From Nemertoderma westbladi (lineage: Eukaryota; Animalia; Xenacoelomorpha), in contig JAUCBJ010007703.1 of assembly GCA_032718475.1 (NCBI GenBank), forward strand, positions 1 through 33,852: 33,852 nt of DNA, in the 5' to 3' direction. The position numbers and the translations under genes were made by a program. This document shows, piece by piece, positions 4,051 to 30,500 of the stretch. The notes beneath the pieces were generated by a model. The model made no database searches. It saw nothing but the letters and a program-made list of their open reading frames with translations, and was not told where the DNA came from. Position 1 is the first letter of the stretch; the number at the start of each line of letters is the position of its first letter.

Positions 4051-5677
4051 CACTATTCTGCCGACAGTCAGTATATTTGATCACACATAAAGAGAGCAGT
4101 AATTGACTCGCGTAGGGTCTGCTAAATAACATTGGATTCAATACACACCACATTAATATAAATCGCAATTGTTATATATAGCCGGTCTCTCTAACCTGTA
4201 GTGTTATCAAGAAAATTGGGAATTGGGTGATTTATCCGTATTATCCAAATAGCGATATTTCCATCAACAAATATTTACAATTAATAACTGACGGTAAAAT
4301 AACAGTACAAACAATATGATTAATGAATTAGTGAGTGATTTAAGTCAGGATTGATGAGTTAGGTAACAGTTTATACTTTCGATAATTCAAGCAGTTTACG
4401 GTACAGCAGTATTGGTTACAAAAAATGCCGGTGTTTCTGGCTTAGACAGCAATAACAACAAAAGTAACAACTCTCTCTCTCTCTCCAGTCAGAGCGAACA
4501 CTCTCCATGATTTCCAGGAAAGCTACACGTCGACAGGAAAAATCGCCCTGATTGGCCCAAGCCAAACAAAGAACCACGCTGCCAATGGCTGTTTCCATGT
4601 CAGCAACCAGCTGCTAGATGTCGTAATATGAATCATCACGGCTAAGCTGTGAAAGGTGGTTTGTGCATTACAAGTTTTTGTCTTACCATGTCCGCTAAAA
4701 CACGTATATAGCAGAATGATTTTTATGTCCGTTAAAACACCTGTAAAGGTACCTTGCGGGCGAGGGGAATATATATACAGTTAGAAAACCTTTTTTAGAG
4801 TATTCCAGCGCCGGGGGGGGAACTGGCCAGCCAAGGCAAACGTATCAGTTATCCCACAAAAGCTTTTACAACAATACTGCACACTAATCTGACGATCTTC
4901 ACTGATTTTAGTCACATATAAAAGGAACACAGACTGACTCATGTAGGGTCTATCAAATAACATTAGATTCACTTCAAACCACTTTAACATAAGTCACAAT
5001 CGTTTATCTGTAACCTTTCTCTCTTACCTTCGGTATATCAAGAATATTGGGTTTCGGGGTTATTTCTCGTTATTCCAAATATAATAATTCATCAACCATA
5101 TTATGAAGAACTGACAGTAAATAGCAGTATAACAATATAAAAGTATGCACAGTGTTACACAGTATGCAGTGTATGCAGTACTGCAGTATGCAGTGATTAC
5201 GAAATTGCAGTTTGTGTGTTTCGTCAGTTAAAGGATATATGTCCTTGTAATTAAACCTACTAGTGTTGAGCTAAAAAGCAGAAAGCACAAAACACTAAAA
5301 GCCGTTCTTTCGTGGCTTTGAAAAACTCGTGACTACTGCTCTATACGAGGATACCAACTCCCTTATTCCACGAAGCTCCCGTTCAACACAGAGAAAGAGC
5401 AGTGAGATAGGAAATTTTCAGTTCAGTGCTCTGTGATAGGTCGAAATCAAGGCTAACTCAAATTCTATTGGGAGATACAACACAAGGCTATGACGCAACC
5501 TCCCTAGGCTTGTTGGCCGATTAAACAGAGCCCAGATGCCTGCGTATAGCAAATCAGCCAATAAGCTGGTAACTTGCACTATTTTTAACTGTAGATCACT
5601 TTGAGAGTATTCTTAGCGACTGGGGGGGAACTGGCCAACAAGGCAAACGAATCAGTTATCCCACAAAAGCTTTTACA
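4040..5677 (-). repeat. Two diverged tandem ~810-830 bp units, possibly LTR-like (each begins TGTAAAAGC on the minus strand)
   Basis: A shared ~62 bp end, ggggggaactggcca...gttatcccacaaaagcttttaca, finishes at 4870 and 5677. 4041-4320 resembles 4871-5140 (gtagggtct..aaataacatt.gattca; tatcaagaa.attggg). No PBS was found. Confidence 0.6.
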
Positions 5678-6084
5678 GGAAGGGAATTACAACTCAACCA
5701 CTAGATAAAGCGGCTCTCTTTACTACATTCAGCTATCCCGGGTGGTTGATTGACAGACACTTCTAAGCTTTGATATTTAGCCGCTCTAGGTAGACTTGCA
5801 TTAGGCAAATTCCAAGTGATTTCCTAAAGGTTATTTATTTCCTATTAGGTTCCTATTAGGATCCTATTAGGATCCAATAGGACGTTATTTGAAAGCGTTA
5901 CTGTAATATTGCTCCTCAAAAGAGGTCCCTACTGTACTGCATCAGGGGCACGTTGATAGACACAGGGACAAAGCCCCGTCAGCGGAAACAGCCAGTGTCG
6001 CTAGCGGTGGGGTTGACTTGTTGAAGAGAGAGGCTATTATGAGGTGCAATGACATACGCATTGCGTATCTTCTTCAGTCAACCA

Positions 6085-7378
6085 ATAGGCAGATAGGAGG
6101 CCAGGCCCTATTAGTCTTTTTGTGTTTCAAATTTCACTATGATAAAGATTTGAAGAAAAAAATGAGGAGTGGGCGTGTCATTCGAAAGTGAAACTACAAA
6201 TGCTGTAGCGCCTACACATCATAATATGTGTCATTGTGTAGGGCAGTAGGGCTACAGTACTGAACTGTTGAATAAAGCCTTTACCAATCTGCTGTATACT
6301 GATATTAAGCTGTAAATATAAGCTGACAGGGACTGGACTGTGCAGCTGTGTGTGCGTAACCTCTGTTGCTGTACCGCATACCGGTACAATTCTGCATCGT
6401 GCAGTGCTGCAGTGCAGGCGGCTTATATCTTACTGTACCTACCTGCCTACTGCTGTACTGTCAGACTGTCTCCTAACTCCAGGTCTTACTGTCTTACCGA
6501 ACTGCCTGACTGCTGAACTGTCAGACTGTGCACTGTGTAAGCTAGCCTACCGCTGTGGCTGCAGGGCTGTACCGGTAGGCCTACGCTACATCAATACAGA
6601 TTCTCAGTCTGAGTTTACCTACATACTGCTACTGACTGACATACAGCTCAGGGCAGCAGGGTTATGGATCCTGCACAGGATGATAAACCCAACAGAACTT
6701 CTGGCGATCCGTCCAATCCCCAATCTCCGCAATCCCAATGCCCCACGTCCACGTCGCAAACTCCGGATCTACAGTGTCAATCCCCCAGCGCGCCTTTACT
6801 CGAGGATGTCCGACAAACGGACTCGCCTTTGAACGAGGTTAGGTACCGGTAGCACTTTCAGTTCTTTGTAGTTCTGTAGTTACGAGTTAGGCTCGAGCTG
6901 TCGAGCTTGGTGCTTGTGCTTGGCTGCCGGGTTTCTGGTTACAGGGTTAGGCTCTGCGCTGTGCCTAGCCTATTACTAGCTACTGAGCTATAGCTGTATA
7001 GCCTACGCCTACTGGACTGTTCCAGTCAGCAGCGGTCAGTCGGTAGATGTTATTTTTGATATTATTTCAGTAGGCCCTATTTGGTTTATGATTTCTGGAT
7101 TTACAATTTGGTGTGATTTATTGTAATATGTTTTTATAGACTGATTCTAATCTAATATCAGTAATCTGGTAATACAGTAACAGAGTAATAATAGCTGAAT
7201 AGCTGAATAGGCCTACGCATGGGGTATTGGGTATTTCTCGAATCTCGATCGGGGATCGCGATCGGGGATCGCGATCGGGATATGTAAATTAAATATATAG
7301 GTTAGATATCATATCCGCACCTCTGTCTGGTATTTTCGTTTTGCAAAAATATAACTAACCTATGTTATTGCTGTATTG
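6085..7378. other. Dense cluster of 8-bp insertion scars (5-bp duplication flanking CAG/CTG) in the UBFD1 upstream region and intron 1
   Basis: Exact NNNNN-CWG-NNNNN starting at 6085, 6239, 6402, 6438, 6448, 6457, 6484, 6501, 6517, 6557, 6649, 6869, 6893, 6937, 6978, 6989, 7090, 7161, 7176, 7190, 7198 and 7366. Confidence 0.85.
6664..6837 (+). CDS. UBFD1: UBFD1 exon 1 (low-complexity N-terminus, MDPAQDDKP...SPLNE)
   Basis: ATG at 6664; GAG|gttagg donor at 6838; phase 0 matches exon 2. Not a conserved region, so it is supported by frame and splice signals only. Confidence 0.7.
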
Positions 7379-7545
7379 AGTTACCGTACAGAGTTATCTT
7401 TTATTGTTTTGGTTAGAAAAGCCCGCGCCGCCACTCCACTGAAGCCTGCTCCTTTCCATTGATTAAGAAATATTTTGCTCCTTTCCCCTAAATTTTGTCA
7501 GTGGTGCGCGTGCATATGGACGATAACCAATTATTTTATTTTTAG

Positions 7546-8038
7546 GAACTCAATTCTTCGCCCAAAAGTAAAGGTGTTGCTATTTTACCGTCGCCGTCGG
7601 TCACTAACGGTTTAGGCGCAGACAAACCGAATTCTCCGTGCGAAATCATTCGTTCCGATATTGTAGTGGCGTCAACGAATGAGACAGTTACCTCAGCCAC
7701 TGACCCTGCTGTGGCGTCAGCAACTGATGTAGTTATGACGCCGGCCCCTTGTGATAAGGTGACGTCAGTGACTGAATCCACTCCGACACAACAATTGACG
7801 TCAGTTAATGACGAGAGTATTACGTCAGCTGCTGATGATACTATGACGTCAGCTACTGACGATGCTATAACGTCAGCTACTGACGATGCGACGACGTCAG
7901 CATTAGATGAACCGTCAGAGAAGCGGCCACGGGAGATGGTTTCGTTTCGGGTCGTTTACATGAAGAAACCGTTGGAAATAACATTCGACTTAGACGACAC
8001 CGTTCATAACCTTAAAACTCACATAACAGAATTAACCA
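7546..8038 (+). CDS. UBFD1: UBFD1 exon 2 (Thr/Ser/Asp-rich region, then start of the ubiquitin-like domain)
   Basis: ttattttatttttag|GAA acceptor; encodes ...EMVSFRVVYMKKPLEITFDLDDTVHNLKTHITELT; A|gttagt donor, phase 1. Confidence 0.85.
7798..7910 (+). repeat. Coding 24-bp tandem repeat (TSATDDAx-like octapeptides) in UBFD1 exon 2
   Basis: acgtcagc(t/a)... recurs every 24 bp; translation TSVNDESI TSAADDTM TSATDDAI TSATDDAT TSALDEPS. Confidence 0.8.
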
Positions 8039-8402
8039 GTTAGTTTATTTATATTAAACTTCCTTTGTTTTTTATATATGTTGTAATAGTTCAACCGATG
8101 CGATATCTGACTAGGCCTATTCATCCAAAATTAAAATATGCAACCCTCCCTTAGATTATGTAACTTTTATGAGACATCTACAAAATAATATAAAACAAAT
8201 AATAAATAAAACTAATACAAAACAATATTATATTATTAATATATTAATAATCTAATATTGTTTTGTTAAACAAACGAAGTGAGTGAGTGCAAATAATGAT
8301 AGAGGGATCAGCACATTGTGAATTTTGCCAGAAACGTTAATTAATTTGAGATTGTAACACATTTTTGCGTAGCGCGATTGTTTTAATGCCCTTCTATTTT
8401 AG

Positions 8403-8585
8403 ATGTGCCTCCACAAATGCAAAAACTGATGTTTAAAGGATTAATGCGAGATGAAGAAAGTTTACGGCAGTGCCGCATCATGGGCGGGTCTAGGATAATG
8501 TTGGTTGGTTCCACAATCAATGACGTCATATCTGTAAATAGTAAACCCGACAGTAAAGAATTGAATGCGCCAAGTACCTCAGTAG
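8403..8585 (+). CDS. UBFD1: UBFD1 exon 3 (rest of the ubiquitin-like domain)
   Basis: cttctattttag|AT acceptor; (N)VPPQMQKLMFKGL...SRIMLVGSTINDVISVN matches recalled UBFD1 LPPAMQKVMYKGL...KIMVVGSTINDVLAVN; G|gtgaga donor, phase 1. Confidence 0.92.
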
Positions 8586-8672
8586 GTGAGATAAACGAAA
8601 GACCAGTAACGCTATATCTATTAACAATCAGATAAAAAGAGGACCAGTTGAAATACTGGGAGCAAAACTTTG

Positions 8673-9258
8673 GATAGGAGTAGCGCCCACCCCTACCTTC
8701 GGGTAGCAGATAGGAGTAGCGCCCACCCCTACCTTCGGGTAGCAGATAGGAGTAGCGTCCACCCCTACCTTCGGGTAGCAGATAGGAGTAGCCCCCACCC
8801 CTACCTTCGGGTAGCAGATAGGAGTAGCGCCCACCCCTACCTTGGGGTAGCAGATAGGAGTAGCGCCCACCCCTACCTTCGGGTAGCAGATAGGAGTAGC
8901 GCCCACCCCTACCTTCGGGTAGCAGATAGGAGCAGCGCCCACCCCTACCTTCGGGTAGCAGATAGGAGTAGCGCCCACCCCTACCTTCGTGTGGCAGATA
9001 GGAGTAGCGCCCACCCCTACCTTCGGGTAGCAGATAGGAGTAGCGCCCACCCCTACCTTCGGGTAGCAGATAGGAGTAGCGCCCACCCCTACCTTCGGGT
9101 AGCAGATAGGAGTAGCGCCCACCCTCTACCTTCGGGTAGCAGATAGGAGTAGCGCCCACCCCTACCTTCGGGTACAGATAGGAGTAGCGCCCACCCCTAC
9201 CTTCGGGTAGCAGATAGGAGTAGCGTCCACCCCTCCTTAGGGTAGCAGATAGGAGTAG
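8673..9258. repeat. 36-bp GC-rich minisatellite (gggtagcagataggagtagcgcccacccctaccttc), ~16 copies, block 1
   Basis: Near-perfect tandem units; source of the spurious repetitive ORFs at 8383-9159. Confidence 0.97.
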
Positions 9259-11721
9259 CAGGGATCGTACGGACTGGTGCTTAGATCGTGGCTTTTCCAG
9301 TTAACATTATTCCATAAAACAAGTTATGTGGTTGGAGAAAGCTGCTACTAAGCATAAGCAGCAACCAATCGCGTTAATCCTGTTTAACACAGAGTCAATG
9401 AGAATGGAATATTGCTAACATGAGAAAGTTCAGGTTAACATTATTCCATATCTCAGTATCTGTATTCGCTATTCTATTTATTACTGTATTAGGCCCTACT
9501 CCTACCCTTGCTGGCCTTGTCTGTTTCATTATACAAGTTATATATACCGAAAGCAGTCAGGCAGAACAGTAGGTACAGCAAAGCAAATTATTAAGAATTG
9601 AAGCAACTGCAACAGTAATTAATCTACAGTAGTAGCCAATACCTAATAGATAACAGATTTTGTTAATTCAATACTTTAAGCTTTAAAGGGGCCTTATTAT
9701 TTCTCATGGTAGTTACATGGGAGCAAAAAAACGATTAGAAGACGAAAAAACGAAGGACGATTAAAAATTATTAAAAATTAATGAGACGAGACGGGACGTA
9801 GTGTAGTGGAATGTAATTTATGCGATAAGAAGTACACAACAACCTCTGCGTTATCGAGACACAAACAAAAATTTGATAAAGGAGAACAGACAGCGAAGCG
9901 AAGCGAAACTAAACCATTCATTTTCACGTTGTCCAGCTTGCCAGCACTTCTTTCTGCAACTCGCGTGTCGGGAATGCTACAGCACAGACAATCCTTGGGC
10001 CAATTGAATGGATAGGACAGTATGATGTAGCGTTTGCACGGGTGTAAACACTACGCCGACAACCGTCAACCACTGCCGACAATGTGAAATGTGAAAATGT
10101 AACCTGAGTTCGTAACTCTCGTTTATTGTTTTGGTTAGACTAACCTTCCACTGTAACCTGTTCCTTTCCCTCAATTAATAAATAACATTAATTAGCTTTA
10201 ATAATGGTTGTCGGCGTTGGTTGTGTTATGGCCTAGCATTTAAACTCCGTTTGCACGAAGTCAGTAAGTGGTTGGTATCATAAAAATTCTGTGAATAAAA
10301 CACAACACGAGTTTCAGGGTGATGAACTGATATGTGCTGATGTGAGACCTGTCTGCCTGTATTTTGCCCACTTTGAATATTACTACGTGGCAAAGTACTT
10401 CAATGAGATATTGTATTAGTGCAGTATGTTTATTACTAAACCAGACAATTTGACAGACATTTGCAGTTTACATCATTGTACTGTAATTAAACTAATCCAC
10501 TTATACTACACGCGATCTTATATTATATGCATATATAATGCATATAATATTGCATTATTATAATGATATAATATTATATCATTATATTATTGATATAATA
10601 ATCAATAATTATAATCAATAATAATATAAGCATATATTATGTATCATGCCTGGTATTGTACCATATAATATTATATGGCTTACTCGATTACTAACTGACT
10701 AACACTAGCAGCTTAATTACTGTAATATCTGATTACTTTGGAATAATGGTAACCTGAACTTTTTGAAGTTAGCAATATTCCATTCTCATTGACTCTGTGT
10801 TAAACAGGATTAATGTGATTGGTTGCTGCTTAGTAGCAGCCACTAGCAGGTTTCTCCAACCACATCACTTGTTTTATACAAAATGGAATAATGTTAACTG
10901 AAAAAGCCACGATCTAAGCACCCGTACGGTACTACCGCTACCGCAAATACCACGCTTTTTACTACCGTTACCGCAAATGCCAACTACTACGGTATTTGCG
11001 GTATATAGTTGGTTTTTAGTTTTTTTCTATTTACCGTAGGCAAATTTCCTATTGGGGTGCTGCTTCTGCCTGCCCATTGAATTTATGTTAATTTGATAAT
11101 TGAAAAATAAGTACCTAAGAAATAAAACCTTTACTATAAACTGTGTTTCTAATTTAAGTTGAAGTTCATTGCATATCAATCATTCATGTCTTAACAGGCT
11201 GAAACAGCAGCAATTGTGTTCAAATTATTTGAAATCGGTAAATAATTTTCTAAAATAATAATCCTGATTTCGTATAACTATGAAATTAATAAGATATTAA
11301 ATCATTATGATACGAAAAAATTACGAAACATTTTCATATCATATCGCATTTTCTTAAAATCACATTCATATCATATTGTATCCTTTTTATACGGTACCTT
11401 CAAAAATCACCATATATGCAAAATAACGTTCATCCATCATTGCAGCAGTTATACATTATATATGAAAAATTGATTCGCATTGTAGCGTATTTTCTGTCAA
11501 CAAAAACAAATTAAAATTTATTAATTCAAGAAAACAATTTACCAAAAATAAACGCCACAATTTAAAAAAAAAGTCGTCAAAAAGTGAGCATCTAACTTCA
11601 TTAATCCAGCTAAATTGACCGCATTGATTGCAACTACCGCTACCGCGGTAAATACCACTAACGCAAAGCCATGCCATTACCACTACCGCTACCGTAAAAA
11701 TTGACTACCGTGCGTTCCCTG
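9259..11721. mobile_element. Non-autonomous hAT-like DNA transposon inserted into the minisatellite
   Basis: Termini CAGGGATCGTACGG / CCGTGCGTTCCCTG (14 bp, 2 mismatches); 8-bp flanks AGGAGTAG at 9251-9258 and 11722-11729; subterminal ctaccg repeats. Confidence 0.8.
9276..10922. mobile_element. Long-TIR non-autonomous element (MULE-like) nested at the left end of the hAT element
   Basis: ~170-180 bp imperfect TIRs (9276-9448 vs 10739-10922, starting GGTGCTTAGATCGTGGC); flanks cgtacgg-act (9266-9275) and cgtacggtact (10923-10933) fit a 10-11 bp TSD. Confidence 0.75.
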
Positions 11722-11905
11722 AGGAGTAGCACCCACCCCTACCTTAGGGTAGCAGATAGGAGTAGCGCCCACACCTACCTTCGGGTATCAGATAGGAGTA
11801 GCAGCCACCCCTACCTTCGGGTAGCAGATAGGAGTAGCGCCCACACCTACCTTCGGGTATCAGATAGGAATAGCGCCCACCACTACCTTAGGGTAGCAGA
11901 TAGGA
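11722..11905. repeat. 36-bp minisatellite, block 2 (~5 copies)
   Basis: Same unit as 8673-9258. Confidence 0.92.
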
Positions 11906-12396
11906 TTAGCCTCCCAACTAAACCCGGGGAGCGAATTGACGGACTCTGGGAGTCCACTGGCCTCCCAACTAAATCCAGGGAGCCACAGCAGCACCAGGAC
12001 TAGCACATGGGAAGAAATAATAAAGCGCTTTAGTAATAGTTCAAATAACTCAAAGGGACAAACAAATATTCAGGAGAATATAATTGGCTCGTGTAAAAAA
12101 GCTACAGCTCCAACAATATCCAAGTAAATGACACCTTCATGTCATTTTCATATTTGAATTCATAATCTAGAACTATGTGTGATTGTGTTATTTTTAGCAA
12201 TTGACTTATCGCCCCTACCACTTGGTAATTGTTCTATATTATATAACTGAAATTTTGTGACCGGGTTGTGTTTATAAATATTTAATGTTTAAACATTTCA
12301 ATTCCCTTTTAATGCGGTTTACGAATTTTATTATGAATTTATTGTTGATCAAATAAATGCCAGCTAGTCTGGTGATGCGCGCGTTGCGCGATAAAC

Positions 12397-12706
12397 TAGC
12401 GCCCTGCCCCTGCAGATAGGAGTAGCGCCCACCCCTGCCTTGGGGTAGCAGATAGGAGTAGCGCCCTCCCCTGCCTTGGGGTAGCAGATAGGAGTAGCGC
12501 CCACCCCTACCTTAGGGTAGCAGATAGGAGTAGCGCCCTCCTCCCCTACCTTAGGGTAGCAGATAGGAGTAGCGCCCACCCCTACCTTAGGGTAGCAGAT
12601 AGGAGTAGCAACCACCCATCCCATACCTTTGGGTAGCAGATAGGAGTAGCACCCACTCTTATCTTCGGGTATCATATAGGAGTAGCGCCCAGCCCTACCT
12701 TCGGGT
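12397..12706. repeat. 36-bp minisatellite, block 3 (~8 copies)
   Basis: Same unit, more diverged. Confidence 0.92.
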
Positions 12707-15165
12707 GATCTTGCGCTGAATGGGCTGCCCCAGGTAAAGAAAATCGTAGACGATATAATAGACGATAAAATCAGCGAGTATCCGACCCCATTAAATATCA
12801 CAGACTTGCAAAGTTTTATGGGGCTGGTCAACCAGCTAGGTTACTTCTCAAGTGAGATTTCAACTACGGCAACACCCCTGCGAGACCTACTACGTGTATG
12901 TACCGCATTTGTATGGACTAGAAACCATGAAGATGCTTTCAACGCCACTAAGGCGGCTCTCGTGAGTCCTCCCGTACTGGCATCATTCGATGCCAGCTTA
13001 CCAACACGCCTCGAGACCGATGCGAGTCGCCTCCATGGACTTGGGTACGATCTACTCCAATGCCATAACGACGACTGGTGGCTTCTCGCATGCGGGAGTA
13101 GATTCCTAAGGGACCCGGAGACACGTTACGCCACTATCGAGTTGGAGTGCATAGCGATACAATACACAATAAAAAAATGCCGTATCTACTTGGCCAGATT
13201 CCGGCATTCACCGTTGTGACAGATCACCGACCACTCCTTGGAATTTTCAACTCGTATAACCTCGACCAAGTCGAGAACAGGAAAATTCAGAAAATGAAAG
13301 CAGAATTACAATCCTGCTACACTTTCACCATTGCCTGGCAGAAGGGGAAGATCCACTGGATTGCTGACGCTTTGAGCCGGGCTCCCGTTGACCTCACTCC
13401 GGACGATCCCGAGGACGAAACGCCACCCATTGTAGCGATGATAGTGGCAAAGCTCCAACAGGAAGAAACTTTGCATTCCTCGGAAGTGGTTAATAAACCC
13501 ACTCAAAGTGCATAACTCGCGCCGGACTCACACGATGAACTCGTGGAGTAACTGCGGGTAGCAGCGCACGAGGATCCGGAATACTGTGAACTCTTGGAGT
13601 GCATACGAACTGGCAACCGTAATGTTCCCACAACGCTGGCAGTGCAGCAATACCGTTAAATTATCTACAACCTGTCGATATACTTCGACCTTGTGTTATA
13701 TGATCCTGCGGAATGTTATGAGTGAATGAATCTGTTATGAGATCCTGTGGAAACTCCACGCTCCCCATCCCATCTCGGAATTACCCGAACTAAACAGCGG
13801 GCTCGCACTACAGTTTACTGGCCTGGAATCAATGCGGACATCGAACGCGCCGTGGGCCATTGCCACGCGTGCCAAGGGTACCTGCCCAGTCTTCCCAAGG
13901 AGACCCTGATGGCAGATGCCATCCCCACGCGTCTCTTTGTGTCAGCTTCCTCGGATCTATTCACCCTCGCGGGTAAACATTTCGTAGTATACACCGCCAG
14001 ACTGCCTGGCTATACCCTGTCGTGTTAGAGTGGCGGAATGACCCCACTGCACAACAGTGCGTCGACGACATATGACGTTTCTTTGTAGACCTCGGGGTCC
14101 CCTACGTTTGGCGTACAGACGGTGGCCCACAATATGCTGCTGATGTATTCCAGCGCTTCCTCAAAGAGTGGGGTGTGCGCTGGGAGGATAGCACGCCACA
14201 CTTCCCTAGCAGCAATGGCCATGCTGAGGCCAGATTTAAAATGCTGCTTAGGAAGGTGCAACACCCTGACATACGCTCTGAAGATTTCCAACGCGGGAGG
14301 TTGGAACTAAGAAACACGCCACGCGCGAATGGGCGATCGCCCAATGAAACGGTGTTTGGACGACGTCTGCGAACTACAATCCCCGCCCACCACAACCATT
14401 ATAAACAACAGTGGCAAGCGGAAGCGGACACAGTGGATAAACGCACGGAAACACAGCGCGGTAGGGCTGTGGAGTTCTATAACCGGTCTGCACATGACCT
14501 CCCTCGCATTGCCGTAGGCGATACGGTCCGCATACAGGACCCCCAGTCCAAAAGGTGGACGCGCATGCCGCATAGGACTGGTAGTGGAGGCTGGCCGGCG
14601 ACGTGATTATCGCGTGAAACTCAATTCTGGCCGGACATGGTGGCGAAACCGCCGCTTCATCAGACGATATCACTCCCCACCACCAGGGGGCGCTTCAAAA
14701 CCTCAGACCAAACCATCATCATCAGATGAACCGGACATACCAAACAATTTCGAAACAGAAAGTAAATCGGCTCTCAGGAAGGCCTATCCCATGCGTCCCA
14801 GTACACTGGCCCAGCGTAAGACAGTGCAGTGCATTGGGACATCAACGACCAAAACGCCACACCATAATGCGTTTCGATCGCGGAGGAAAAAGGGGTGTGA
14901 TATCCAGTTTGGACGGAGGCCTCAATAACTGAGGTGTGCGGCCTGCCCGAGAGACCTGGGATACTATACTGCTGTACTGATGTAATCTTTATTAACTGGG
15001 TACAATACCCTACACCGCAGCACCGGTACACTGGTACTAAACGGCCGCTGCGGCCCTAACTAGGTGGTGGTCCTGGAATATTAATTATTGTTCTATAATA
15101 TACATATATCTTTGTATTGCTCAATATAATGCAGTAAGGACGAATGAGATATTAAACCATTCACA
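12705..15165 (+). mobile_element. 5'-deleted, degenerate Ty3/Gypsy LTR retrotransposon (RT-RNaseH-integrase, PPT, 3' LTR)
   Basis: RT core GDLALNGLPQVKKIVDDII and thumb TDLQSFMGLVNQLG; RNase H LETDAS...ETRYATIELE...TDHRPL...ADALSR; integrase HLGITRTKQRAR..VYWPG..CHAC and STPHFPSSNGHAE. Multiple stops and frameshifts. The RT-RH-INT order is Gypsy-type. Confidence 0.92.
14896..15165 (+). repeat. 3' LTR (270 bp), preceded by a polypurine tract
   Basis: PPT ggaggaaaaagggg at 14882-14895; TGTGA...TCACA inverted ends; ATTAAA at 15151; the minisatellite resumes at 15166. Confidence 0.8.
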
Positions 15166-15283
15166 CAGATATGAGTTGCGCCCTCCTCCCCACACCACCC
15201 CCCCCCCCCCCCCCCCCCCCCCTACCGTCGGATAGCATATAGGAGTAGCTCCCACCCCGACCTTCGGGTAGCAGATATGAGTA
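15166..15283. repeat. 36-bp minisatellite, block 4 (degenerate, with a poly-C run)
   Basis: cagatatgagttgcgccc...ccttcgggtagcagat. Confidence 0.75.
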
Positions 15284-15297
15284 TTATGAGTATTTAA

Positions 15298-15530
15298 TTA
15301 AATATGTAATTCATTTAAAATATTTAATGTAATTCATACAAAATATTTAATGTAATTCGTACAAAATATTTAATGTAATTTATTCAAAATATTTAATATA
15401 ATTCGTACAAATATTTAATGTAATTCATACAAAATATTTAATGTAATTCATACAAAATATTTAATGTAATTCATACAAAATATTTAATGTAATTCATACA
15501 AAATATTTTATGTAATTCATACTAAATATT
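15298..15530. repeat. 23-bp AT-rich minisatellite (aaaatatttaatgtaattcatac), ~10 copies
   Basis: Directly visible period of 23 (e.g. 15431, 15454). Confidence 0.9.
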
Positions 15531-15866
15531 GAATTTATAAAATAGTTTATCAATAACAAAAAGTGGTTGCACATTTTCTGGAATTCATTGTAAACAGTTG
15601 GTAGACTTGTGATGGTCAAGCCACCAGATTTAACTGAGAGAGGTGAGACCAGGCTGACACGAAACTAGTCGGGGCTCAAATCTGTATCGGCAAATTCTAC
15701 AAATATATCTTAATTTCATTCAATAAATTTTCACTTTTGAAATTAAGTTTTGGCCCTACCCTGGACGAAACTAATCATAACTCTTTCAATAAGTATATAA
15801 TGTATCTGTCTCTCCTCATTAATGATCTCTGTCTCACAGTAATTCCCTGTTCTGTATCCTTTCCAG

Positions 15867-16070
15867 CAACCCGCGAACCATTGTGCCAGCAGACAGCCCA
15901 TCGCAAGGTCCTCGACAAACATCCCCTCCCTCCAGATTGTCCCCCCGGCATTACCGGTGTTCACGAACTCTTGCCTCACGTTCCTCTCAGCGGAATGATT
16001 AATAAAACCGGAGGGAAAGTCCGACTCACATTCAAGTTAGAGTTGGATCAGCTATGGATAGGAACCAAAG
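15867..16070 (+). CDS. UBFD1: UBFD1 exon 4
   Basis: tcctttccag|CA acceptor; REPLCQQTAHRKVLDK...VPLSGMINKTGGKVRLTFKLELDQLWIGTK matches recalled UBFD1 KEPLCRQKQHRKVLDK...VPLSGMYNKSGGKVRLTFKLEQDQLWIGTK; AAG|gtgagt donor, phase 1. Confidence 0.95.
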
Positions 16071-19000
16071 GTGAGTTAGAGTTGGATCAGCTAATAGGAA
16101 CCAAAGGTGAGTTAGAGTTGGATCAGCTGTGGATATGAACCAAAGGTGAGTTAGAGTTGGATCAGCTATGGATAGGAACCAAAGGTGAGTTAGAGTTGGA
16201 TCAGCTGTGGATAGGAACCAAAGAGTTGGATCAGCTGTGGATAGGAACCAAAGGTGAGTCCGGGTTGGATCAGCTATGGATAGGAACCAAAGGTGAGTTA
16301 GAGTTGGATCAGCTAATAGGAACCAAAGGTGAGTTAGAGTTGGATCAGCTATGGATAGGAACCAAAGGTGAGTTAGAGTTGGATCAGCTATGGATAGGAA
16401 CCAAAGGTGAGTTAGAGTTGGATCAGCTGTGGATAGGAACCAAAGGTGAGTTAGAGTTGGATCAGCTGTGGATATGAACCAAAGGTGAGTTAGAGTTGGA
16501 TCAGCTATGGATAGGAACCAAAGGTGAGTCCGAGTTGGATCAGCTATGGATAGGAACCAAAGGTGAGTCCGAGTTGGATCAGCTGTGGATAGGAACCAAA
16601 GGTGAGTTAGAGTTGGATCAGCTAATAGGAACCAAAGGTGAGTTTGAGTTGGATCAGCTGTGGATAGGAACCAAAGGTGAGTCCGAGTTGGATCAGCTAT
16701 GGATAGGAACCAAAGGTGAGTCCGAGTTGGATCAGCTATGGATAGGAACCAAAGGTGAGTTAGAGTTGGATCAGCTAATAGGAACCAAAGGTGAGTTAGA
16801 GTTGGATCAGCTATGGATATGAACCAAAGGTGAGTTAGAGTTGGATCAGCTATGGATAGGAACCAAAGGTGAGTTAGAGTTGGATCAGCTAATAGGAACC
16901 AAAGGTGAGTTAGAGTTGGATCAGCTGTGGATAGGAACCAAAGGTGAGTTAGAGTTGGATCAGCTAATAGGAACCAAAGGTGAGTTAGAGTTGGATCAGC
17001 TAATAGGAACCAAAGGTGAGTTAGAGTTGGATCAGCTATGGATATGAACCAAAGGTGAGTTAGAGTTGGATCAGCTATGGATAGGAACCAAAGGTGAGTT
17101 AGAGTTGGATCAGCTAATAGGAACCAAAGGTGAGTTAGAGTTGGATCAGCTGTGGATAGGAACCAAAGGTGAGTCCGAGTTGGATCAGCTATGGATAGGA
17201 ACCAAAGGTGAGTCCGAGTTGGATCAGCTATGGATAGGAACCAAAGGTGAGTTAGAGTTGGATCAGCTAATAGGAACCAAAGGTGAGTTAGAGTTGGATC
17301 AGCTAATAGGAACCAAAGGTGAGTTAGAGTTGGATCAGCTATGGATATGAACCAAAGGTGAGTTAGAGTTGGATCAGCTATGGATAGGAACCAAAGGTGA
17401 GTTAGAGTTGGATCAGCTAATAGGAACCAAAGGTGAGTTAGAGTTGGATTAGCTAATAGGAACCAAAGGTGAGTTAGAGTTGGATCAGCTAATAGGAACC
17501 AAAGGTGAGTTAGAGTTGGATCAGCTAATAGGAACCAAAGGTGAGTTAGAGTTGGATCAGCTAATAGGAACCAAAGGTGAGTTAGAGTTGGATCAGCTAT
17601 GGATATGAACCAAAGGTGAGTTAGAGTTGGATCAGCTATGGATAGGAACCAAAGGTGAGTCCGAGTTGGATCAGCTATGGATATGAACCAAAGGTGAGTT
17701 AGAGTTGGATCAGCTATGGATAGGAACCAAAGGTGAGTTAGAGTTGGATCAGCTAATAGGAACCAAAGGTGAGTTAGAGTTGGATCAGCTGTGGATAGGA
17801 ACCAAAGGTGAGTCCGAGTTGGATCAGCTATGGATAGGAACCAAAGGTGAGTCCGAGTTGGATCAGCTATGGATAGGAACCAAAGGTGAGTTAGAGTTGG
17901 ATCAGCTAATAGGAACCAAAGGTGAGTTAGAGTTGGATCAGCTAATAGGAACCAAAGGTGAGTTAGAGTTGGATCAGCTATGGATATGAACCAAAGGTGA
18001 GTTAGAGTTGGATCAGCTATGGATAGGAACCAAAGGTGAGTTAGAGTTGGATAAGCTAATAGGAACCAAAGGTGAGTTAGAGTTGGATCAGCTAATAGGA
18101 ACCAAAGGTGAGTTAGAGTTGGATCAGCTAATAGGAACCAAAGGTGAGTTAGAGTTGGATCAGCTATGGATAGGAACCAAAGGTGAGTTAGAGTTGGATC
18201 AGCTATGGATAGGAACCAAAGGTGAGTTAGAGTTGGATCAGCTATGGATAGGAACCAAAGGTGAGTTAGAGTTGGATCAGCTATGGATAGGAACCAAAGG
18301 TGAGTCCGAGTTGGATCAGCTATGGATAGGAACCAAAGGTGAGTCCGAGTTGGATCAGCTATGGATAGGAACCAAAGGTGAGTTAGAGTTGGATCAGCAA
18401 ATAGGAACCAAAGGTGAGTTAGAGTTGGATCAGCTAATAGGAACCAAAGGTGAGTTAGAGTTGGATCAGCTATGGATAGGAACCAAAGGTGAGTTAGAGT
18501 TGGATCAGCTATGGATAGGAACCAAAGGATCAGCTATGGATAGGAACCAAAGGTGAGTTAGAGTTGGATCAGCTATGGATAGGAACCAAAGGATCAGCTA
18601 TGGATAGGAACCAAAGGTGAGTTAGAGTTGGATCAGCTAATAGGAACCAAAGGTGAGTTAGAGTTGGATCAGCTAATAGGAACCAAAGGTGAGTTAGAGT
18701 TGGATCAGCTATGGATAGGAACCAAAGGTGAGTTAGAGTTGGATCAGCTAATAGGAACCAAAGGTGAGTCCGAGTTGGATCAGCTATGGATAGGAACCAA
18801 AGGTGAGTTAGAGTTGGATCAACTATGGATAGGAACCAAAGGTGAGTTAGAGTTGGATCAGCTAATAGGAACCAAAGTTGAGTTAGAGTTGGATCAGCTA
18901 TGGATAGGAACCAAAGGTGAGTTAGAGTTGGATCAGCTATGGATAGGAACCAAAGTTGAGTTAGAGTTGGATCAGCTAATAGGAACCAAAAGTGAGTTAG

Positions 19001-22000
19001 AGTTGGATCAGCTAATAGGAACCAAAGGTGAGTCCGAGTTGGATCAGCTATGGATAGGAACCAAAGGTGAGTCCGAGTTGGATCAGCTGTGGATAGGAAC
19101 CAAAGTTGAGTCCGAGTTGGATCAGCTATGGATAGGAACCAATGGTGAGTTAGAGTTGGATCAGCTAATAGGAACCAAAGGTGAGTCCGAGTTGGATCAG
19201 CTATGGATAGGAACCAAAGGTGAGTCCGAGTTGGATCAGCTAATAGGAACCAAAGGTGAGTTAGAGTTGGATCAGCTAATAGGAACCAAAGGTGAGTCCG
19301 AGTTGGATCAGCTATGGATAGGAACCAAAGGTGAGTCCGAGTTGGATCAGCTATGGATAGGAACCAAAGGTGAGTCCGAGTTGGATCAGCTATGGATAGG
19401 AACCAAAGGTGAGTCCGAGTTGGATCAGCTGTGGATAGGAACCAAAGGTGAGTTAGAGTTGGATCAGCTAATAGGAACCAAAGGTGAGTTAGAGTTGGAT
19501 CAGCTAATAGGAACCAAAGGTGAGTTAGAGTTGGATCAGCTGTGGATAGGAACCAAAGGTGAGTCCGAGTTGGATCAGCTATGGATAGGAACCAAAGGTG
19601 AGTCCGAGTTGGATCAGCTAATAGGAACCAAAGGTGAGTTAGAGTTGGATCAGCTGTGGATAGGAACCAAAGGTGAGTCCGAGTTGGATCAGCTATGGAT
19701 AGGAACCAAAGGTGAGTTAGAGTTGGATAAGCTAATAGGAACCAAAGGTGAGTTAGAGTTGGATCAGCTAATAGGAACCAAAGGTGAGTTAGAGTTGGAT
19801 CAGCTATGGATAGGAACCAAAGGTGAGTCCGAGTTGGATCAGCTAATAGGAACCAAAGGTGAGTTAGAGTTAGATCAGCTAATAGGAACCAAAGGTGAGT
19901 CCGAGTTGGATCAGCTATGGATAGGAACCAAAGGTGAGTCCGAGTTGGATCAGCTATGGATAGGAACCAAAGGTGAGTTAGAGTTGGATCAGCTAATAGG
20001 AACCAAAGGTGAGTTAGAGTTGGATCAGCTGTGGATAGGAACCAAAGGTGAGTCCGAGTTGGATCAGCTATGGATAGGAACCAAAGGTGAGTTAGAGTTG
20101 TTCAGCTAATAGGAACCAAAGGTGAGTTAGAGTTGGATCAGCTAATAGGAACCAAAGGTGAGTTAGAGTTGGATCAGCTATGGATAGGAACCAAAGGTGA
20201 GTCCGAGTTGGATCAGCTAATAGGAACCAAAGGTGAGTTAGAGTTGGATCAGCTATGGATAGGAACCAAAGGTGAGTCCGAGTTGGATCAGTTGCGGATA
20301 GGAACCAAAGGTGAGTCCGAGTTGGATCAGCTATGGATAGGAACCAAAGGTGAGTCCGAGTTGGATCAGCTATGGATAGGAACCAAAGGTGAGTCCGAGT
20401 TGGATCAGCTATGGATAGGAACCAAAGGTGAGTTAGAGTTGGATCAGCTAATAGGAACCAAAGGTGAGTTAGGTAAGGTCCGATTATTTAGAGCATCAGT
20501 AGTTCCAGTACTCCTCTACGGGAGTCCATGCTGGGCTCTAACTGCTGAGGACACCAAATCTCTGGATGGCACATTCACAAGAATGCTACGCCGGGTTCAT
20601 TGTATCAAGTACAATGCACACATCTCCAACCAGACACTATATAACATTGGAGGTGTCTCATTGGTTCCCCCAAGCTTGACACTAGAACAAAATCGCCTCC
20701 GCTTTGCAGGACATTGCTTTCGCCGTGAGGACCAGCCAGTGCATAATCTTGTACTTTGGCAGCCTCATGGAGTGAATAAGCATGGTGGACAGCCCATGAC
20801 TTTCTTGAGACGCATCTTAAAGGACACTGGCCTTAAAGATGCGGATGATCTAGCAAATGTCATGGGTGATAGGGAGTTGTGGCGGTGCAATTTTGTTGAC
20901 AAGCCGGCACATCATTCTTAAAAATGCAGCTGCAATGCAGCATGCCGATCCTAGTAGTAGTAGTACCAAAGGTGAGTTAGAGTTGGATCAGCTAATAGGA
21001 ACCAAAGGTGAGTTAGAGTTGGATCAGCTATGGATAGGAACCAAAGGTGAGTTAGAGTTGGATCAGCTATGGATAGGAACCAAAGGTGAGTTAGAGTTGG
21101 ATCAGCTAATAGGAACCAAAGGTGAGTTAGAGTTGGATCAGCTGTGGATAGGAACCAAAGGTGAGTCCGAGTTGGATCAGCTATGGATATGAACCAAAGG
21201 TGAGTCCGAGTTGGATCAGCTGTGGATAGGAACCAAACGTGAGTTAGAGTTGGATCAGCTAATAGGAACCAAAGGTGAGTTAGAGTTGGATCAGCTATGG
21301 ATAGGAACCAAAGGTGAGTTAGAGTTGGATCAGCTATGGATAGGAACCAAAGGTGAGTTAGAGTTGGATCAGCTTTGGATAGGAACCAAAGGTGAGTTAG
21401 AGTTGGATCAGCTGTGGATAGGAACCAAAGGTGAGTCCGAGTTGGATCAGCTATGGATAGGAACCAAAGGTGAGTTAGAGTTGGATCAGCTATGGATAGG
21501 AACCAAAGGTGAGTCCGAGTTGGATCAGCTATGGATAGGAACCAAAGGTGAGTTAGAGTTGGATCAGCTATGGATAGGAACCAAAGGTGAGTTAGAGTTG
21601 GATCAGCTATGGATAGGAACCAAAGGTGAGTTAGAGTTGGATCAGCTATGGATAGGAACCAAAGGTGAGTTAGAGTTGGATCAGCTATGGATAGGAACCA
21701 AAGGTGAGTTAGGGTTGGATCAGCAAATAGGAACCAAAGGTGAGTTAGAGTTGGATCAGTTGCGGATAGGAACCAAAGGTGAGTCCGAGTTGGATCAGCT
21801 ATGGATAGGAACCAAAGGTGAGTTAGAGTTGGATCAGCTGTGGATAGGAACCAAAGGTGAGTTAGAGTTGGATCAGCTAATAGGAACCAAAGGTGAGTCC
21901 GAGTTGGATCAGTTGCGGATAGGAACCAAAGGTGAGTTAGAGTTGGATCAGCTGTGGATAGGAACCAAAGGTGAGTTAGAGTTAGATCAGCTATGGATAG

Positions 22001-22397
22001 GAACCAAAGGTGAGTTAGAGTTGGATCAGCTAATAGGAACCAAAGGTGAGTTAGAGTTGGATCAGCTATGGATAGGAACCAAAGGTGAGTTAGAGTTGGA
22101 TCAGCTATGGATAGGAACCAAAGGTGAGTTAGAGTTGGATCAGCTAATAGGAACCAAAGGTGAGTTAGAGTTGGATCAGCTAATAGGAACCAAAGGTGAG
22201 TCCGAGTTGGATCAGCTATGGATAGGAACCAAAGGTGAGTTAGAGTTGGATCAGCTGTGGATAGGAACCAAAGGTGAGTTAGAGTTGGATCAGCTGTGGA
22301 TATGAACCAAAGGTGAGTTAGAGTTGGATCAGCTGTGGATAGGAACCAAAGGTGAGTCCGAGTTGGATCAGTTGCGGATAGGAACCAAAGGTGAGTT
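16035..22397 (+). repeat. 39/36-bp tandem array (~150 units) of the UBFD1 exon-4 end plus its 5' splice site
   Basis: Unit agttagagttggatcagcta(tgg)ataggaaccaaag|gtg equals exon nt 16035-16070 plus the intron start. The last unit continues as gtgagttcgcg... into unique intron sequence. Confidence 0.97.
20473..20964 (+). mobile_element. 5'-truncated non-LTR retrotransposon (RTE-like), 492 bp
   Basis: Uninterrupted ORF C-terminus (VPVLLYGSPCW...FTRMLRR...RLRFAGHCFR...DRELWR; stop 20921), short 3' UTR, (TAG)n tail at 20952-20964; 16-bp TSD accaaaggtgagttag at 20457-20472 and 20965-20980. Confidence 0.88.
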
Positions 22398-22645
22398 CGC
22401 GAAATTAAATTTTTTCAGTATCAAAGTTATCATTTTGGACATAAACATTAATCCGGTCAAAAATAATTGATTATCCCAGGTGATTGGTATAGATACATTA
22501 GAGGTGGTAGGTGGTGCCTTTCCTGTCTACTAGAACTAGAGTGCTATGTATAAAGGCCCCAACGCGTGAGCCAAGCAGGACCATCTCCATGTGAATGGGG
22601 ATTGGGGAGAGCCATGTGATACGGATTATTTATATTTATTTCTAG

Positions 22646-22824
22646 AACGAACACAGAAGATTAATATGAGCAGTATATCTAATGTTGTCTCGGAGTCAAT
22701 AGAAGGACTGGAACGGTACCACATACTGGGAATTCAGTTGGGGCCAACAGAGGCTTCGAGATACTGGATATACTACGTACCCGCTCAATACGTAAACGCT
22801 ATACGGGCGACTATTATGGGTTAA
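22646..22824 (+). CDS. UBFD1: UBFD1 exon 5 (C-terminal domain, stop TAA)
   Basis: tttatttctag|AA acceptor (G+AA = Glu); ERTQKINMSSISNVVSESIEG...QLGPTEASRYWIYYVPAQYVNAI matches recalled UBFD1 ERTEKLPMGSIKNVVSEPIEG...QLGPTEASYYWVYWVPTQYVDAI. The spliced CDS totals 1233 nt = 410 aa plus stop. Confidence 0.95.
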
Positions 22825-24056: not shown

Positions 24057-24957
24057 CACCATGTCCTGGAATATAGTGTCATTATTCTGGTACATGGACC
24101 CCCCCAAAATTTTTCTACAAATCTTAATGAGATTGCATGAAATTTGAAACAGAGATAGTTTCACCTCCCTCCTCCTTGCTGGGTGAGCCAGAATTTTTAT
24201 TTCTGCTTTCATTCTTTAGGTACAAGCGTTTGAAAATAGTGTCTCCTGCGAAATTGCACCAGTCCCACCGCAGTTATTCTTCAACCTTATTATGATTTTT
24301 TAGTACTAATTTAAAGCCAGTCGTGCAAGGATTCCAAAAATGCAAAAACATTTGAATTTGGTAGAGAAATAGCCGAGATATGGTCATTCGAAAGTTGTAT
24401 GTATTTGCTTCCCCTGCACGCCATTTATTCTATTTAATAAATATATTTAATAAATACATCATATTCTGGAACATTTTGTTTATCTAATACGTAGTTGGGC
24501 AACATTGCAATGCTTCTTTAATCATTCTATTATGTAGCTATTCATACATAAACAAAATGTTCTAGAATATGGTGTTTCTATTTAATAGAATAAAACAGCC
24601 TCGCGCAGGTGCAAAACCATGCAACTTTTGAATGCTCAAAAAATCTCAGCTATTTCACAACCAAATTCAAATATTTTTACATTTTTGGAATCCTTGCATG
24701 GTTAGCTTTCTATTTCTATTTCTACCAATGAATAACTGCAGTGTAACTGGTGAAATATCACTGGAGACACCTTTTTCAAATGCTTGTAGCTAAAGATTGA
24801 AAGCAAAAATCTAAATTCTGGCTCACCCAGGAAGGAGGAGGGACGTGAAACTATCTCTGTTTCAAATTTCATGCAATTTCGTTAAGATTTGTATGAAAAT
24901 TTGGGGGGGGGGGGGGTGAGGTACCTGAATAACGACACTATATTCCAGGACATGGTG
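24057..24957. mobile_element. Foldback/palindromic MITE with TA target duplication (Tc1/mariner-type)
   Basis: TA|CACCATGTCCTGGAATATAGTGTC ... GACACTATATTCCAGGACATGGTG|TA; ~430 bp imperfect inverted arms with a ~55 bp spacer. Confidence 0.88.
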
Positions 24958-26383
24958 TACGTACGTGTCTCAAAGTATCATTTTACAGTTTGCTTATCGG
25001 AGAGTTTGGTAACATGAACGAAGGTAGTGAGTGAGTGGAGATAAAGCTGCGAGGATTAAACACTGTAAAGTACTTTGTAACACGTACATGCAGATAGTTT
25101 TGTTCCAAAATTGTAATATTACTAAACGTCTATTTATAATAAATAAAATAAAAACTTTTGTTCTTAATAATTTGGTGAAATTTCTCAAATTTTATAATAT
25201 GTATTTGTATTATATAGCAGCAACTAAGTAGAAAACGCTCTTTAAGATTTCATCACTATGCCAAAAGTTAGTAAAGTTTAGCTATTGCAGTTGCCTGTAC
25301 AATAATGTTATTCATGTTAATATTCAATGATAACAATTAGGGATGCGACAGAGCTAAAATTTCATCCGGAGCCCGGAGGTTCCTCCGGGTTACAATATGA
25401 GCTCCGTCCGGAGACGGAGCCGGAGGTTTGGTGATTGATAATTCCAGTGTATTATTTAGGGATGTCCCGGAATCGATATTTTGATTCCGGCCGGAACCGG
25501 AACCGGAATTCAACATGCCGGAATATTCCGGCCGGAATTCCGGCCGGAATTCCGGCCGGAACCGGAATTTTCTATAATTAGTGACCTACACTAAATGACC
25601 CATGAAACTTTATAATTTTTTCTGAAACAGATGAATTTTTTTAAATTTCTACAGCTAAGTTTGATAATGAGATGAATCAGAACCTTGGGGGGAATGAAGG
25701 TGGGTGGAATGGAGAATGGGCTGGGTCGTTATGGCCGTTTATGGGGACGGGATGGTACTTCGGCATTGGACTACAAGGAATTTAATATATTTTTTTTTCT
25801 AAAATCTATAACATTGTCTAAAAGTTAGGTTTTTAGCATTTAGACTCACCTAAAAACCTACGTTAACCAAAAATCGATGGTTTCGCATCATTGGGTCCTT
25901 TGCTGCAATATTCTGGTGTCTTTAAGGGAAAGGAACATGTTACCGTGACATGTTATTCGAACCAAAACAATAAACGAGGCCAATAGTACATGTTACAGTT
26001 TAATTACTACTATATTATGCAGTACCTACGACGCAGGACTGAACTAACGACCACTCGCAGGACCTGTACGTATTGTAATAACGTTTATATTAGTTTTAGG
26101 TTAGAGTAGGAATTGTAATTGTGTAATACTGTATTTGTAACCAAGTAACATAAAGGACCCCCATGGAAATAAGCTGCAAATCTTTACTGGCAATCCTATA
26201 TGTTACGTTGGACAATACCAATCATAATATTATCATATTATTTAATAATTCAAAATTCAAAGTAAAATAATATAAAATCAATGTGAAATAATTTAAATTC
26301 AATGTCAAATAATGTAAAATCAATCTAAAAACGTCATTTTATAAGCAAATTGTAATAATTAAATTGGAAAAACCACCCGCTAA

Positions 26384-26712
26384 GGCCCGTGCTCCACTGG
26401 TAAGTCTTATGTAGTCTTAGTCAAATAAATTATGGAACACATTGGTTTCAATGTTACCGTCTCCAATGGTAAATCGTAAGTTACGACTGTGATTATGTCC
26501 CATGTTCCATCTTTTGACATATGAATCATGTGATATATCCGGCAAGATGCCTCTGATTGGCTACTTTGGGTATAAATATGCAGTAAATGTGAGACGCATC
26601 TTATATTTTTTATTAAATTGTGTTACCAATGGAGCAAAGAGGCATTCATTTTGACATTCTGACTAAGACAAAATATGAAAACGACTTACGACTTACCAGT
26701 GGAGCACGGGCC
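26384..26712. mobile_element. PIF/Harbinger (Tourist-like) MITE, 329 bp, innermost of the nest
   Basis: 23-bp perfect TIR GGCCCGTGCTCCACTGGTAAGTC; TAA TSD on both sides. Confidence 0.88.
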
Positions 26713-26959
26713 TAATGATGCATTTCATAAAATATCTTCAGAACGACAAATTGTTTAACGTAAATTAAGGGGGTTATTGTGAATTGTATATGAATACTAC
26801 AGTAGGTGGTGTAATAGATGAGTGGGACCATTTTAGTTTGATTACCAGGTGACATTTTTTTGGAAATGTGTTACATATGTGATATAACCATCAAGACTAA
26901 ATTCACTTTAATAAACAGGGTGGCTATGAATTTTCCCTCGTTACATAGGTTAGTTAGGT

Positions 26960-27150
26960 TCCACCTTGGTGTAGTGGTTGCATTGATTTCCAATCTATCT
27001 GGAGGTTGTGGGTTCGATCCCTGCATGTGGGCGTAGGCAGTTTTTGATTCGATACGAATGGTTTGAATGGGCCTAACCAGGGGGCATCTATGCCTTGCAT
27101 CTTTAAATGTTAGCTCTAACGGTCGAAGAAAACTTTATTTCTACTTTTTT
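26960..27150 (+). mobile_element. Probable tRNA-derived SINE fragment
   Basis: A-box-like tggtgtagtgg (~26967) and B-box ggttcgatccc (27011), with no full cloverleaf; T-rich end. Confidence 0.4.
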
Positions 27151-29989: not shown

Positions 29990-30500
29990 ACAGCTTCCGA
30001 CAGTCCGATGTATCTGGACCCGAGCAGCCGAGTGGCATCAAGATGCGATTAACCGAGGAATAAATACTACGGAATTGCTTGCTTGTCAGTAAGATTCTAT
30101 TTACTACACTGGGAATACGGCGGTCGGTCGGATCGTAATGCGGGCCACTGCCAAGTTCCTCATGCCTCACTCAGGCCACCCACCTTGGAGTGCGGTGGGA
30201 AGAGTCCGACTTACGTCGACGACTGGACGAATCGACGAGGATTGCGATTTCGGTTTAGCGGCGGCCCGGACAGCCGGATCCTGGGATCGCCTGGGGGAAA
30301 TTGTTGAAAGTCGGGCAGACGTGTATCGCACCGGATTACGTTCTCTGCCACGCGAAAGTGTGAGGCGAATTCGTTGTCGAATTGGGTCGGAAGCTGCGGG
30401 AATTCTACTGTTCTACGGGAATAAACCGCAGCTGTCCGGTGACTACGGACGGATACTGGGATGAGCAGGTATTTCGATCGAGTTTCTCGTATTCTCGATT
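29990..30500 (+). pseudogene. Aldehyde dehydrogenase family 3 (ALDH3-like) pseudogene fragment
   Basis: Stitched across frames: LPMYLDP...TTELLACQ*DSIYYTGNTAVGRIVMRATAKFL...[46 protein letters not shown]...LREFYGNKPQLSGDYGRI. This is colinear with ALDH3 motifs ([26 protein letters not shown]). In-frame stops and frameshifts are present. Confidence 0.9.

Follow-up and report, generated by a model that had tools for sequence, protein, structure and literature searches.

Five-base duplications spaced by CAG or CTG cluster at the start of a UBFD1-like gene in Nemertoderma westbladi and are probably excision footprints of a transposable element

A stretch of about 1.3 kb at the start of a UBFD1-like gene of Nemertoderma westbladi (positions 6085-7378, referred to below as the hotspot) contains 23 exact copies of the motif N5-CWG-N5, in which a sequence of five bases is repeated on either side of CAG or CTG. 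This cluster is a real feature of the window, which is the whole stretch of 33,852 nucleotides that was analyzed (contig JAUCBJ010007703.1 of assembly GCA_032718475.1), and the most plausible interpretation is that young excision scars have piled up where an expressed gene begins. The motifs are probably the footprints of an element that has CAG...CTG or CTG...CAG ends, is cut with a 3-nt stagger and generates a variable 5-bp target site duplication (TSD). An excision origin had been proposed in the initial annotation of this DNA, and it accords with the constant CWG spacer in both orientations, the variety of the 5-mers, the nesting of motifs within one another, the symmetry of the target profile, the absence of motifs from coding sequence and a comparison of paralogous repeat copies.

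The motifs were counted by scanning the window for all pairs of identical 5-mers that lie three bases apart. In the hotspot the spacers consist of 14 CTG and 9 CAG, a total slightly above the minimum of 22 motifs in the initial annotation, and the six examples quoted there as well as both chains of motifs (6438/6448/6457 and 7190/7198) were found at the positions given for them. Chance had been thought to account for well under one motif per 1.3 kb, which agrees with the means of 0.05, 0.11, 0.16 and 0.19 obtained when 2-, 3-, 4- and 5-mer counts, respectively, were preserved in 1000 shuffles each (maximum of 3 motifs). The hotspot region is CWG-rich, but local richness in CAG and CTG is insufficient as a cause since shuffles that keep up to 5-mer counts give a mean of no more than 0.19. 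With the CWG spacer, duplications of 3, 4, 6 and 7 bases occur 3, 1, 0 and 0 times in the hotspot and are not enriched, while every other three-base spacer occurs there at most three times, several of these cases being register shifts of CWG motifs. Window-wide, with tandem arrays masked, CAG/CTG is the most frequent three-base spacer between 5-mers, with 37 cases versus 12 for the next. The excess of CWG thus stands against other spacers, other duplication lengths and local richness alike. Runs X1, X2 and X3 come from two studies, and the window itself may derive from one of their samples. Their short-read contigs extend across 6058-7421 without a gap and differ from the window at 0-1 letters, so the motif cluster is no assembly artefact.

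The UBFD1-like host gene (6664-22824, plus strand) has five coding exons (6664-6837, 7546-8038, 8403-8585, 15867-16070 and 22646-22824, all plus strand), and its product of 410 amino acids has Pfam hits to ubiquitin and PH_UBFD1_C. Twelve exact motifs lie before the start codon at 6085-6661, in the putative promoter and 5' leader (starts at 6085, 6239, 6338, 6402, 6438, 6448, 6457, 6484, 6501, 6517, 6557 and 6649), and 11 lie in intron 1 at 6869-7378 (starts at 6869, 6893, 6937, 6978, 6989, 7090, 7161, 7176, 7190, 7198 and 7366). Coding exon 1 (6664-6837) is free of motifs yet flanked by them on both sides, as had been noticed earlier, and its 0 of 23 compares with 3.6 expected at the flanking density (P about 0.03). 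Run X4, which is labelled 'DNA?', contains spliced contigs in which exon 1 is joined to exon 2 across a GT..AG intron. RNA-derived contigs of this run are gap-free over 6284-6835, further contigs cover 6284-6629, a GT..AG joint links 6311 to 6600, and most of intron 1 is uncovered. The spliced contigs indicate that the UBFD1-like gene is expressed and that part of the motif cluster is inside its leader. The promoter-like setting suggested for the cluster is thus upheld insofar as RNA contigs cover part of it, but contigs cannot locate a transcription start, and the hotspot is accordingly spoken of here as a putative promoter. A 186-aa open reading frame that crosses the hotspot has no Pfam match and is regarded as a chance frame. 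The hotspot is single copy and is bordered on both sides by very high-copy repeats (5500-6195 and 7327-7500), where the summed contig depth reaches about 300,000 versus 22-45. Two high-copy repeats of the organism gave no match in the metagenome contigs or prokaryote genomes that were scanned.

Across the window, CAG is the spacer of 14 motifs and CTG that of 23 (n = 37), which is not a significant bias (P = 0.19). A CWG spacer is present in 37 of 37 by the definition of the motif, and whether it is CAG or CTG is unrelated to the flanking bases. Almost all of the 5-mers had been described as different, and 33 distinct ones were indeed counted among the 37 motifs. Because the period-8 match is exactly five bases long in 25 of the 37, the motifs are not 8-bp tandem duplications. 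When the empty sites are reconstructed, the outer flanks are flat and show no base preference. Within the 5-mers, G at positions 1-2 or C at positions 4-5 is scarce (16 of 148 versus 31.5 expected, P = 0.001), a YA start or TR end is frequent (25 of 74 versus 11.9 expected, P = 0.0002), and 13 of the 37 start or end in TA, while G or C makes up 80 of the 185 TSD bases (43%) against a background of 42.6%. The target profile, which can be written Y-M-N-K-R, is weak in its preferences and is two-fold symmetric even before symmetrizing, and a two-fold symmetric profile is what a dimeric transposase gives.

All but one of the 37 motifs fall inside four clusters. These clusters, whose borders were set around the motif matches themselves, hold 36 motifs in 3390 bp with 0.45 expected, and the remaining 22,588 bp hold a lone motif at 5176-5188, which is the chance level (1.13 expected). 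None of the 37 lies in the 5841 bp of coding or ORF sequence. Cluster 2 (9449-10702; 5 motifs versus 0.06 expected) is within an element with long inverted arms at about 9270-10928. Cluster 3 (14967-15025), with 2 exact and 4 one-mismatch motifs, occupies the LTR-like end of a decayed Gypsy-type element, an assignment that is read from the sequence; matches to RT RNase H and integrase lie upstream of it. Cluster 4 (29996-30415; 6 motifs) lies in a putative promoter, a GC- and CpG-rich stretch which ends at a splice-donor-like site near 30469. Short arrays resembling TCTCGA/TCGCGA are located at 7235-7280 and 30475-30520, behind both of the promoter-like clusters and just inside the first introns or putative first introns.

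Some motifs become visible only when others are taken out. Removal of the motif at 6501 uncovers a hidden motif at 6500-6520, removal of the overlapping motifs at 7161 and 7176 uncovers a second at 7162-7190, and removal of an inner TA-CCG-TA uncovers a third at 7379-7396, which indicates that the events occurred successively. The last of these belongs to a dispersed-repeat segment (7361-7396) that can be parsed into a visible motif (8 bp), TA-CCG-TA (5 bp) and the surrounding hidden motif (8 bp). By eye, two other copies of this right-edge repeat, found on contigs, are 21 bp shorter than the copy in the window. The X2/X3 contig, with a joint at 7348-7393, has 11 letters versus the window's 32 at 7361-7392, and the X4 contig is without 7366-7386 and has a loose end at 7387. 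Taking the visible motif, TA-CCG-TA and the hidden motif out of the window copy removes 8+5+8 = 21 bp and leaves 11 letters, 9 of which are identical to those of X3 (again by eye). This comparison involves two contigs that are paralogues and not alleles, and at one joint the shorter side is only 23 letters long; the X2/X3 copy is also without 12 further bases that the model leaves unexplained, and the X4 copy can be parsed in another way that likewise uses 8-bp steps. No 8-bp presence/absence allele was seen among the 12 indels listed out of 68, a comparison made on contigs, which drop rare variants, and the contigs of three DNA runs show a single allele at the hotspot.

The balance of perfect and imperfect motifs gives a rough idea of the age of the scars. 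There are 36 perfect, 15 one-mismatch (3.3 expected) and 12 two-mismatch motifs (16.5 expected) in the clusters, and 23 perfect and 5 one-mismatch motifs (1.67 expected) in the hotspot, from which the paired copies of a 5-mer may be estimated to have diverged by about 1-3%. The hotspot carries about 0.02 scars per non-coding base. If decay is neutral, these two values suggest that scars and substitutions arise here at rates of similar magnitude, an estimate that is rough and to be read with the erasure of old scars by later insertions in mind. The hotspot has 1.17 kb of non-coding DNA, roughly 18% of which would consist of scars (about 26, or 208 bp).

Other words of footprint shape occur alongside the motifs. 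Between 6379 and 7388 the TA-flanked words TACCGGTA, TAGGCCTA, TAG(C/G)CTA and TAC(C/G)GTA are present 3, 2, 3 and 1 times, respectively, versus 0.05, 0.03, 0.31 and 0.26 in shuffles, and the first three words would fit scars of TA-targeting elements with CCG or GGC ends. TA-CAG/CTG-TA is not enriched in the hotspot (3 versus 1.54 expected). At 990-1500, TACCGGTA occurs six times (0.47 expected) and TAGGCCTA three times (0.03 expected) in a group that includes zero motifs of the 5+3 type, and distinct scar types appear to favor distinct sites. This group adjoins a 331-aa minus-strand ORF, just upstream of it. In the clusters, repeats with periods of 5, 6 and 7 bp are elevated regardless of the spacer (CA, TG, CG, C, G and none were counted), and secondary footprints are not demonstrable as short-period repeats are elevated in general.

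The scars suggest the following sequence of events, all of whose enzymatic steps are worked out from the scars themselves. The element would insert with a 5-bp stagger and little sequence preference, chiefly into open, promoter-like DNA. To excise it, the transposase would cut the non-transferred strands 3 nt inside the element without forming a hairpin, which would leave a 3-nt overhang on each flank, and end joining would then pair C:G and G:C around a single mismatch to yield CAG or CTG and a net gain of 8 bp. The exon would be purged of full insertions and of frameshifting scars, but those scars that fall in the promoter, leader or intron would persist and be struck again. CAG...CTG ends and a 3-nt cut were adopted in this scheme because the hairpin rule fails and the products expected of a 2-nt cut are scarce (see below for both).

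Tc1/mariner elements have a DD(E/D) transposase of the IS630-Tc1-mariner type. In their excision the non-transferred strand is cut at a position a few bases within the element and no hairpin forms, and the scar of Sleeping Beauty is TA-CAG-TA or TA-CTG-TA, which a hairpin-free 3-nt staggered cut followed by end joining accounts for (10.1101/659086 and PMC8151067). The motifs have the defining feature of such footprints, namely two to three terminal element bases that are independent of the target, and, as in the Sleeping Beauty scar, CAG or CTG stands between two copies of the target as a three-base remnant of the element. Unlike Sleeping Beauty and other Tc1/mariner elements, the duplication is 5 bp long and variable (33 distinct 5-mers in 37 motifs) rather than TA. 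Integration of Sleeping Beauty is almost random according to PMC8151067. The sites described here are extremely clustered, and this clustering is therefore not Sleeping Beauty behavior. The P element is excised by staggered cuts within its own sequence, with no hairpin; it leaves end remnants at the donor site and prefers promoters, and it is similar in all of these respects to the element proposed here. It differs in its 17-nt stagger and its 8-bp TSD.

An element with CA..TG ends that is cut 2 nt inside, and whose two CA overhangs are joined with one base overlapping, which yields CAG or CTG, could produce the same motif, but this is improbable. Ends of this kind occur in most members of the CMCT clade, whose TSDs are 2-5 bp (PMC12730594), and both features are compatible with the scar, from which only three end bases can be read; the available portion of that paper describes no CMCT member which combines CAG ends, a 5-bp TSD and end-remnant footprints. 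The transposase of the clade is characterized by C(2)C and H(3-4)H motifs. The YA..TR bias of the 5-mers resembles the CASTG and CAWTG targets of two Transib families (PMC1131882), and one CTG footprint has been reported for Tc3 (10.1101/659086). A 2-nt cutter should nevertheless leave chiefly CA/TG or CATG, whereas the clusters contain 36 CWG spacers, 7 CA/TG spacers (several of them within longer period-7 runs) and 0 CATG. In addition, Transib is described as cutting via a flank hairpin (PMC8151067).

It is equally hard to favor an origin without any transposon, in which an enzyme makes 5-nt staggered cuts in open chromatin that are repaired with the addition of a fixed trinucleotide. Such an origin would agree with the lack of a parent element in the window and with the general elevation of short tandem duplications in the same clusters. 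Against it, the pattern equals a known transposase product base for base, TSD length aside, and the motifs co-occur with the TA-type words of footprint shape. No repair pathway known to us inserts CAG or its complement irrespective of the sequence, and a literature search found none that does.

It is very unlikely that the motifs are ordinary flank-hairpin footprints of hAT, hAT5 or Transib elements, in which case the three-base spacer would consist of P nucleotides derived from the target. TSDs of 5 bp are made by hAT5, a hAT lineage within the Blackjack group (PMC12730594), and by Transib, which has invariant CAC ends and includes families that favor CASTG or CAWTG targets (PMC1131882). The motifs share the TSD length with both, and their weak YA..TR bias faintly resembles the Transib targets. 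A gain of 8 bp is also the length of a typical hAT TSD, and the window contains hAT-like elements flanked by 8-bp TSDs. Many hAT elements begin with CAG or TAG, as do the hAT-like elements of the window. Excision by hAT and Transib proceeds via a flank hairpin and gives target-dependent joints, and the hAT chemistry known from Hermes and Tol2 leaves hairpin-derived target bases and not element ends (PMC8151067). The scars described here are instead read as being of the element-end type, a contrast which for hAT5 assumes the chemistry of Hermes and Tol2. P nucleotides depend on the target, but the middle base of the spacer obeys the hairpin rule in only 16 of the 37 motifs, and in 8 of the 37 both TSD ends are C/G, where the rule cannot yield A/T. 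The first spacer base is always C, yet only 16 of the 37 TSDs end in G; CCG/CGG spacers number 0 in the clusters, the outer flanks are flat, and the period-8 runs of exactly five bases exclude 8-bp tandem duplications. The independence of the spacer from the target thus contradicts a hairpin origin. Transib is further set apart by its CAC ends, since the clusters contain 0 N5-CAC/GTG-N5 versus 36 CWG motifs (the ends being read from the scar), and by its GC-rich targets, the G+C content of the 5-mers being equal to background. Least probable of all are selected protein-binding sites or slippage in CAG/CTG-rich DNA, which would suit the position of the motifs at a gene start in a CWG-rich region but are contradicted by the shuffles (mean of 0.19 with 5-mer counts kept), by 5-mers that vary from site to site and so offer no common word to bind, and by the inability of slippage to insert a non-templated trinucleotide between copies.

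If the motifs were left by excision of an element with CAG...CTG ends, the scar predicts an element that can be found, one that joins end remnants like those of Sleeping Beauty to a 5-bp duplication like that of Transib or hAT5. The initial annotation had seen no parent element in the window, and this holds, as a search for CAG...CTG ends with a 5-bp TSD gave 0 candidates there. A general scan of the window for terminal inverted repeats with TSDs recovered TA, TAA and 8-bp types and no pair with CAG...CTG ends and a 5-bp duplication; one weak case with a 5-7-bp TSD (28655-28966) has other ends and is inside a GTCY-rich repeat. A literature search, which did not extend to Repbase Reports, found neither a description of the motif nor a family combining element-end remnants with a 5-bp TSD. 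No such family is described in the available portions of PMC4455052, PMC5199201, PMC5751038, PMC8232201, PMC9587614, PMC6004678 and 10.64898/2026.07.01.735963. The new part is the 5+3 grammar, for which hAT5 and CMCT were compared by description only. Repbase holds unclassified families with a 5-bp TSD, and an existing family of this kind may be the source. It is conceivable, if somewhat doubtful, that the scars stem from an undescribed transposase lineage in which Tc1-type hairpin-free excision is combined with a variable 5-bp duplication and strong promoter targeting, and whose scars alter the promoters of this animal at a speed comparable to that of point mutation. Should the excision reading be right, the source would be a new lineage or else one already known for 5-bp TSDs, which would then cut in a manner unlike the chemistry assumed for its superfamily. 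Scar piles would then represent a source of mutation that is invisible to repeat annotation, as well as a countable record of insertions into open chromatin.

The window has several further features. Intron 3 of the UBFD1-like gene contains a 36-bp satellite (8673-12706) with several nested insertions, among them a hAT-like element at about 9258-11720 with an 8-bp duplication (by eye), which itself contains the long-armed element at about 9270-10928, and a truncated Gypsy-type element further on. Intron 4 holds a 39-bp tandem array of about 166 copies (16035-22397), interrupted at about 20470-20965 by a fragment that resembles a LINE 3' end. The unit of this array corresponds to the 3' end of exon 4 plus the splice donor that follows it, and exon 4 is thus trailed by some 160 in-register alternative donors. 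MITEs are located at 24057-24957, 25338-28003, 25457-27431 and 26384-26712, with TA, 8-bp and TAA duplications, and three of them are nested. An intronless AGXT2-like gene is present at 32100-33580. What is probably its N-terminal part lies in a different frame from the main ORF near 32290, which could reflect either an assembly error or a processed pseudogene. The best matches of its product, at 62-64%, point to an animal-like eukaryote with no near relatives among annotated sequences, and in a quick tree of 53 of 121 sequences it forms a long branch without support.
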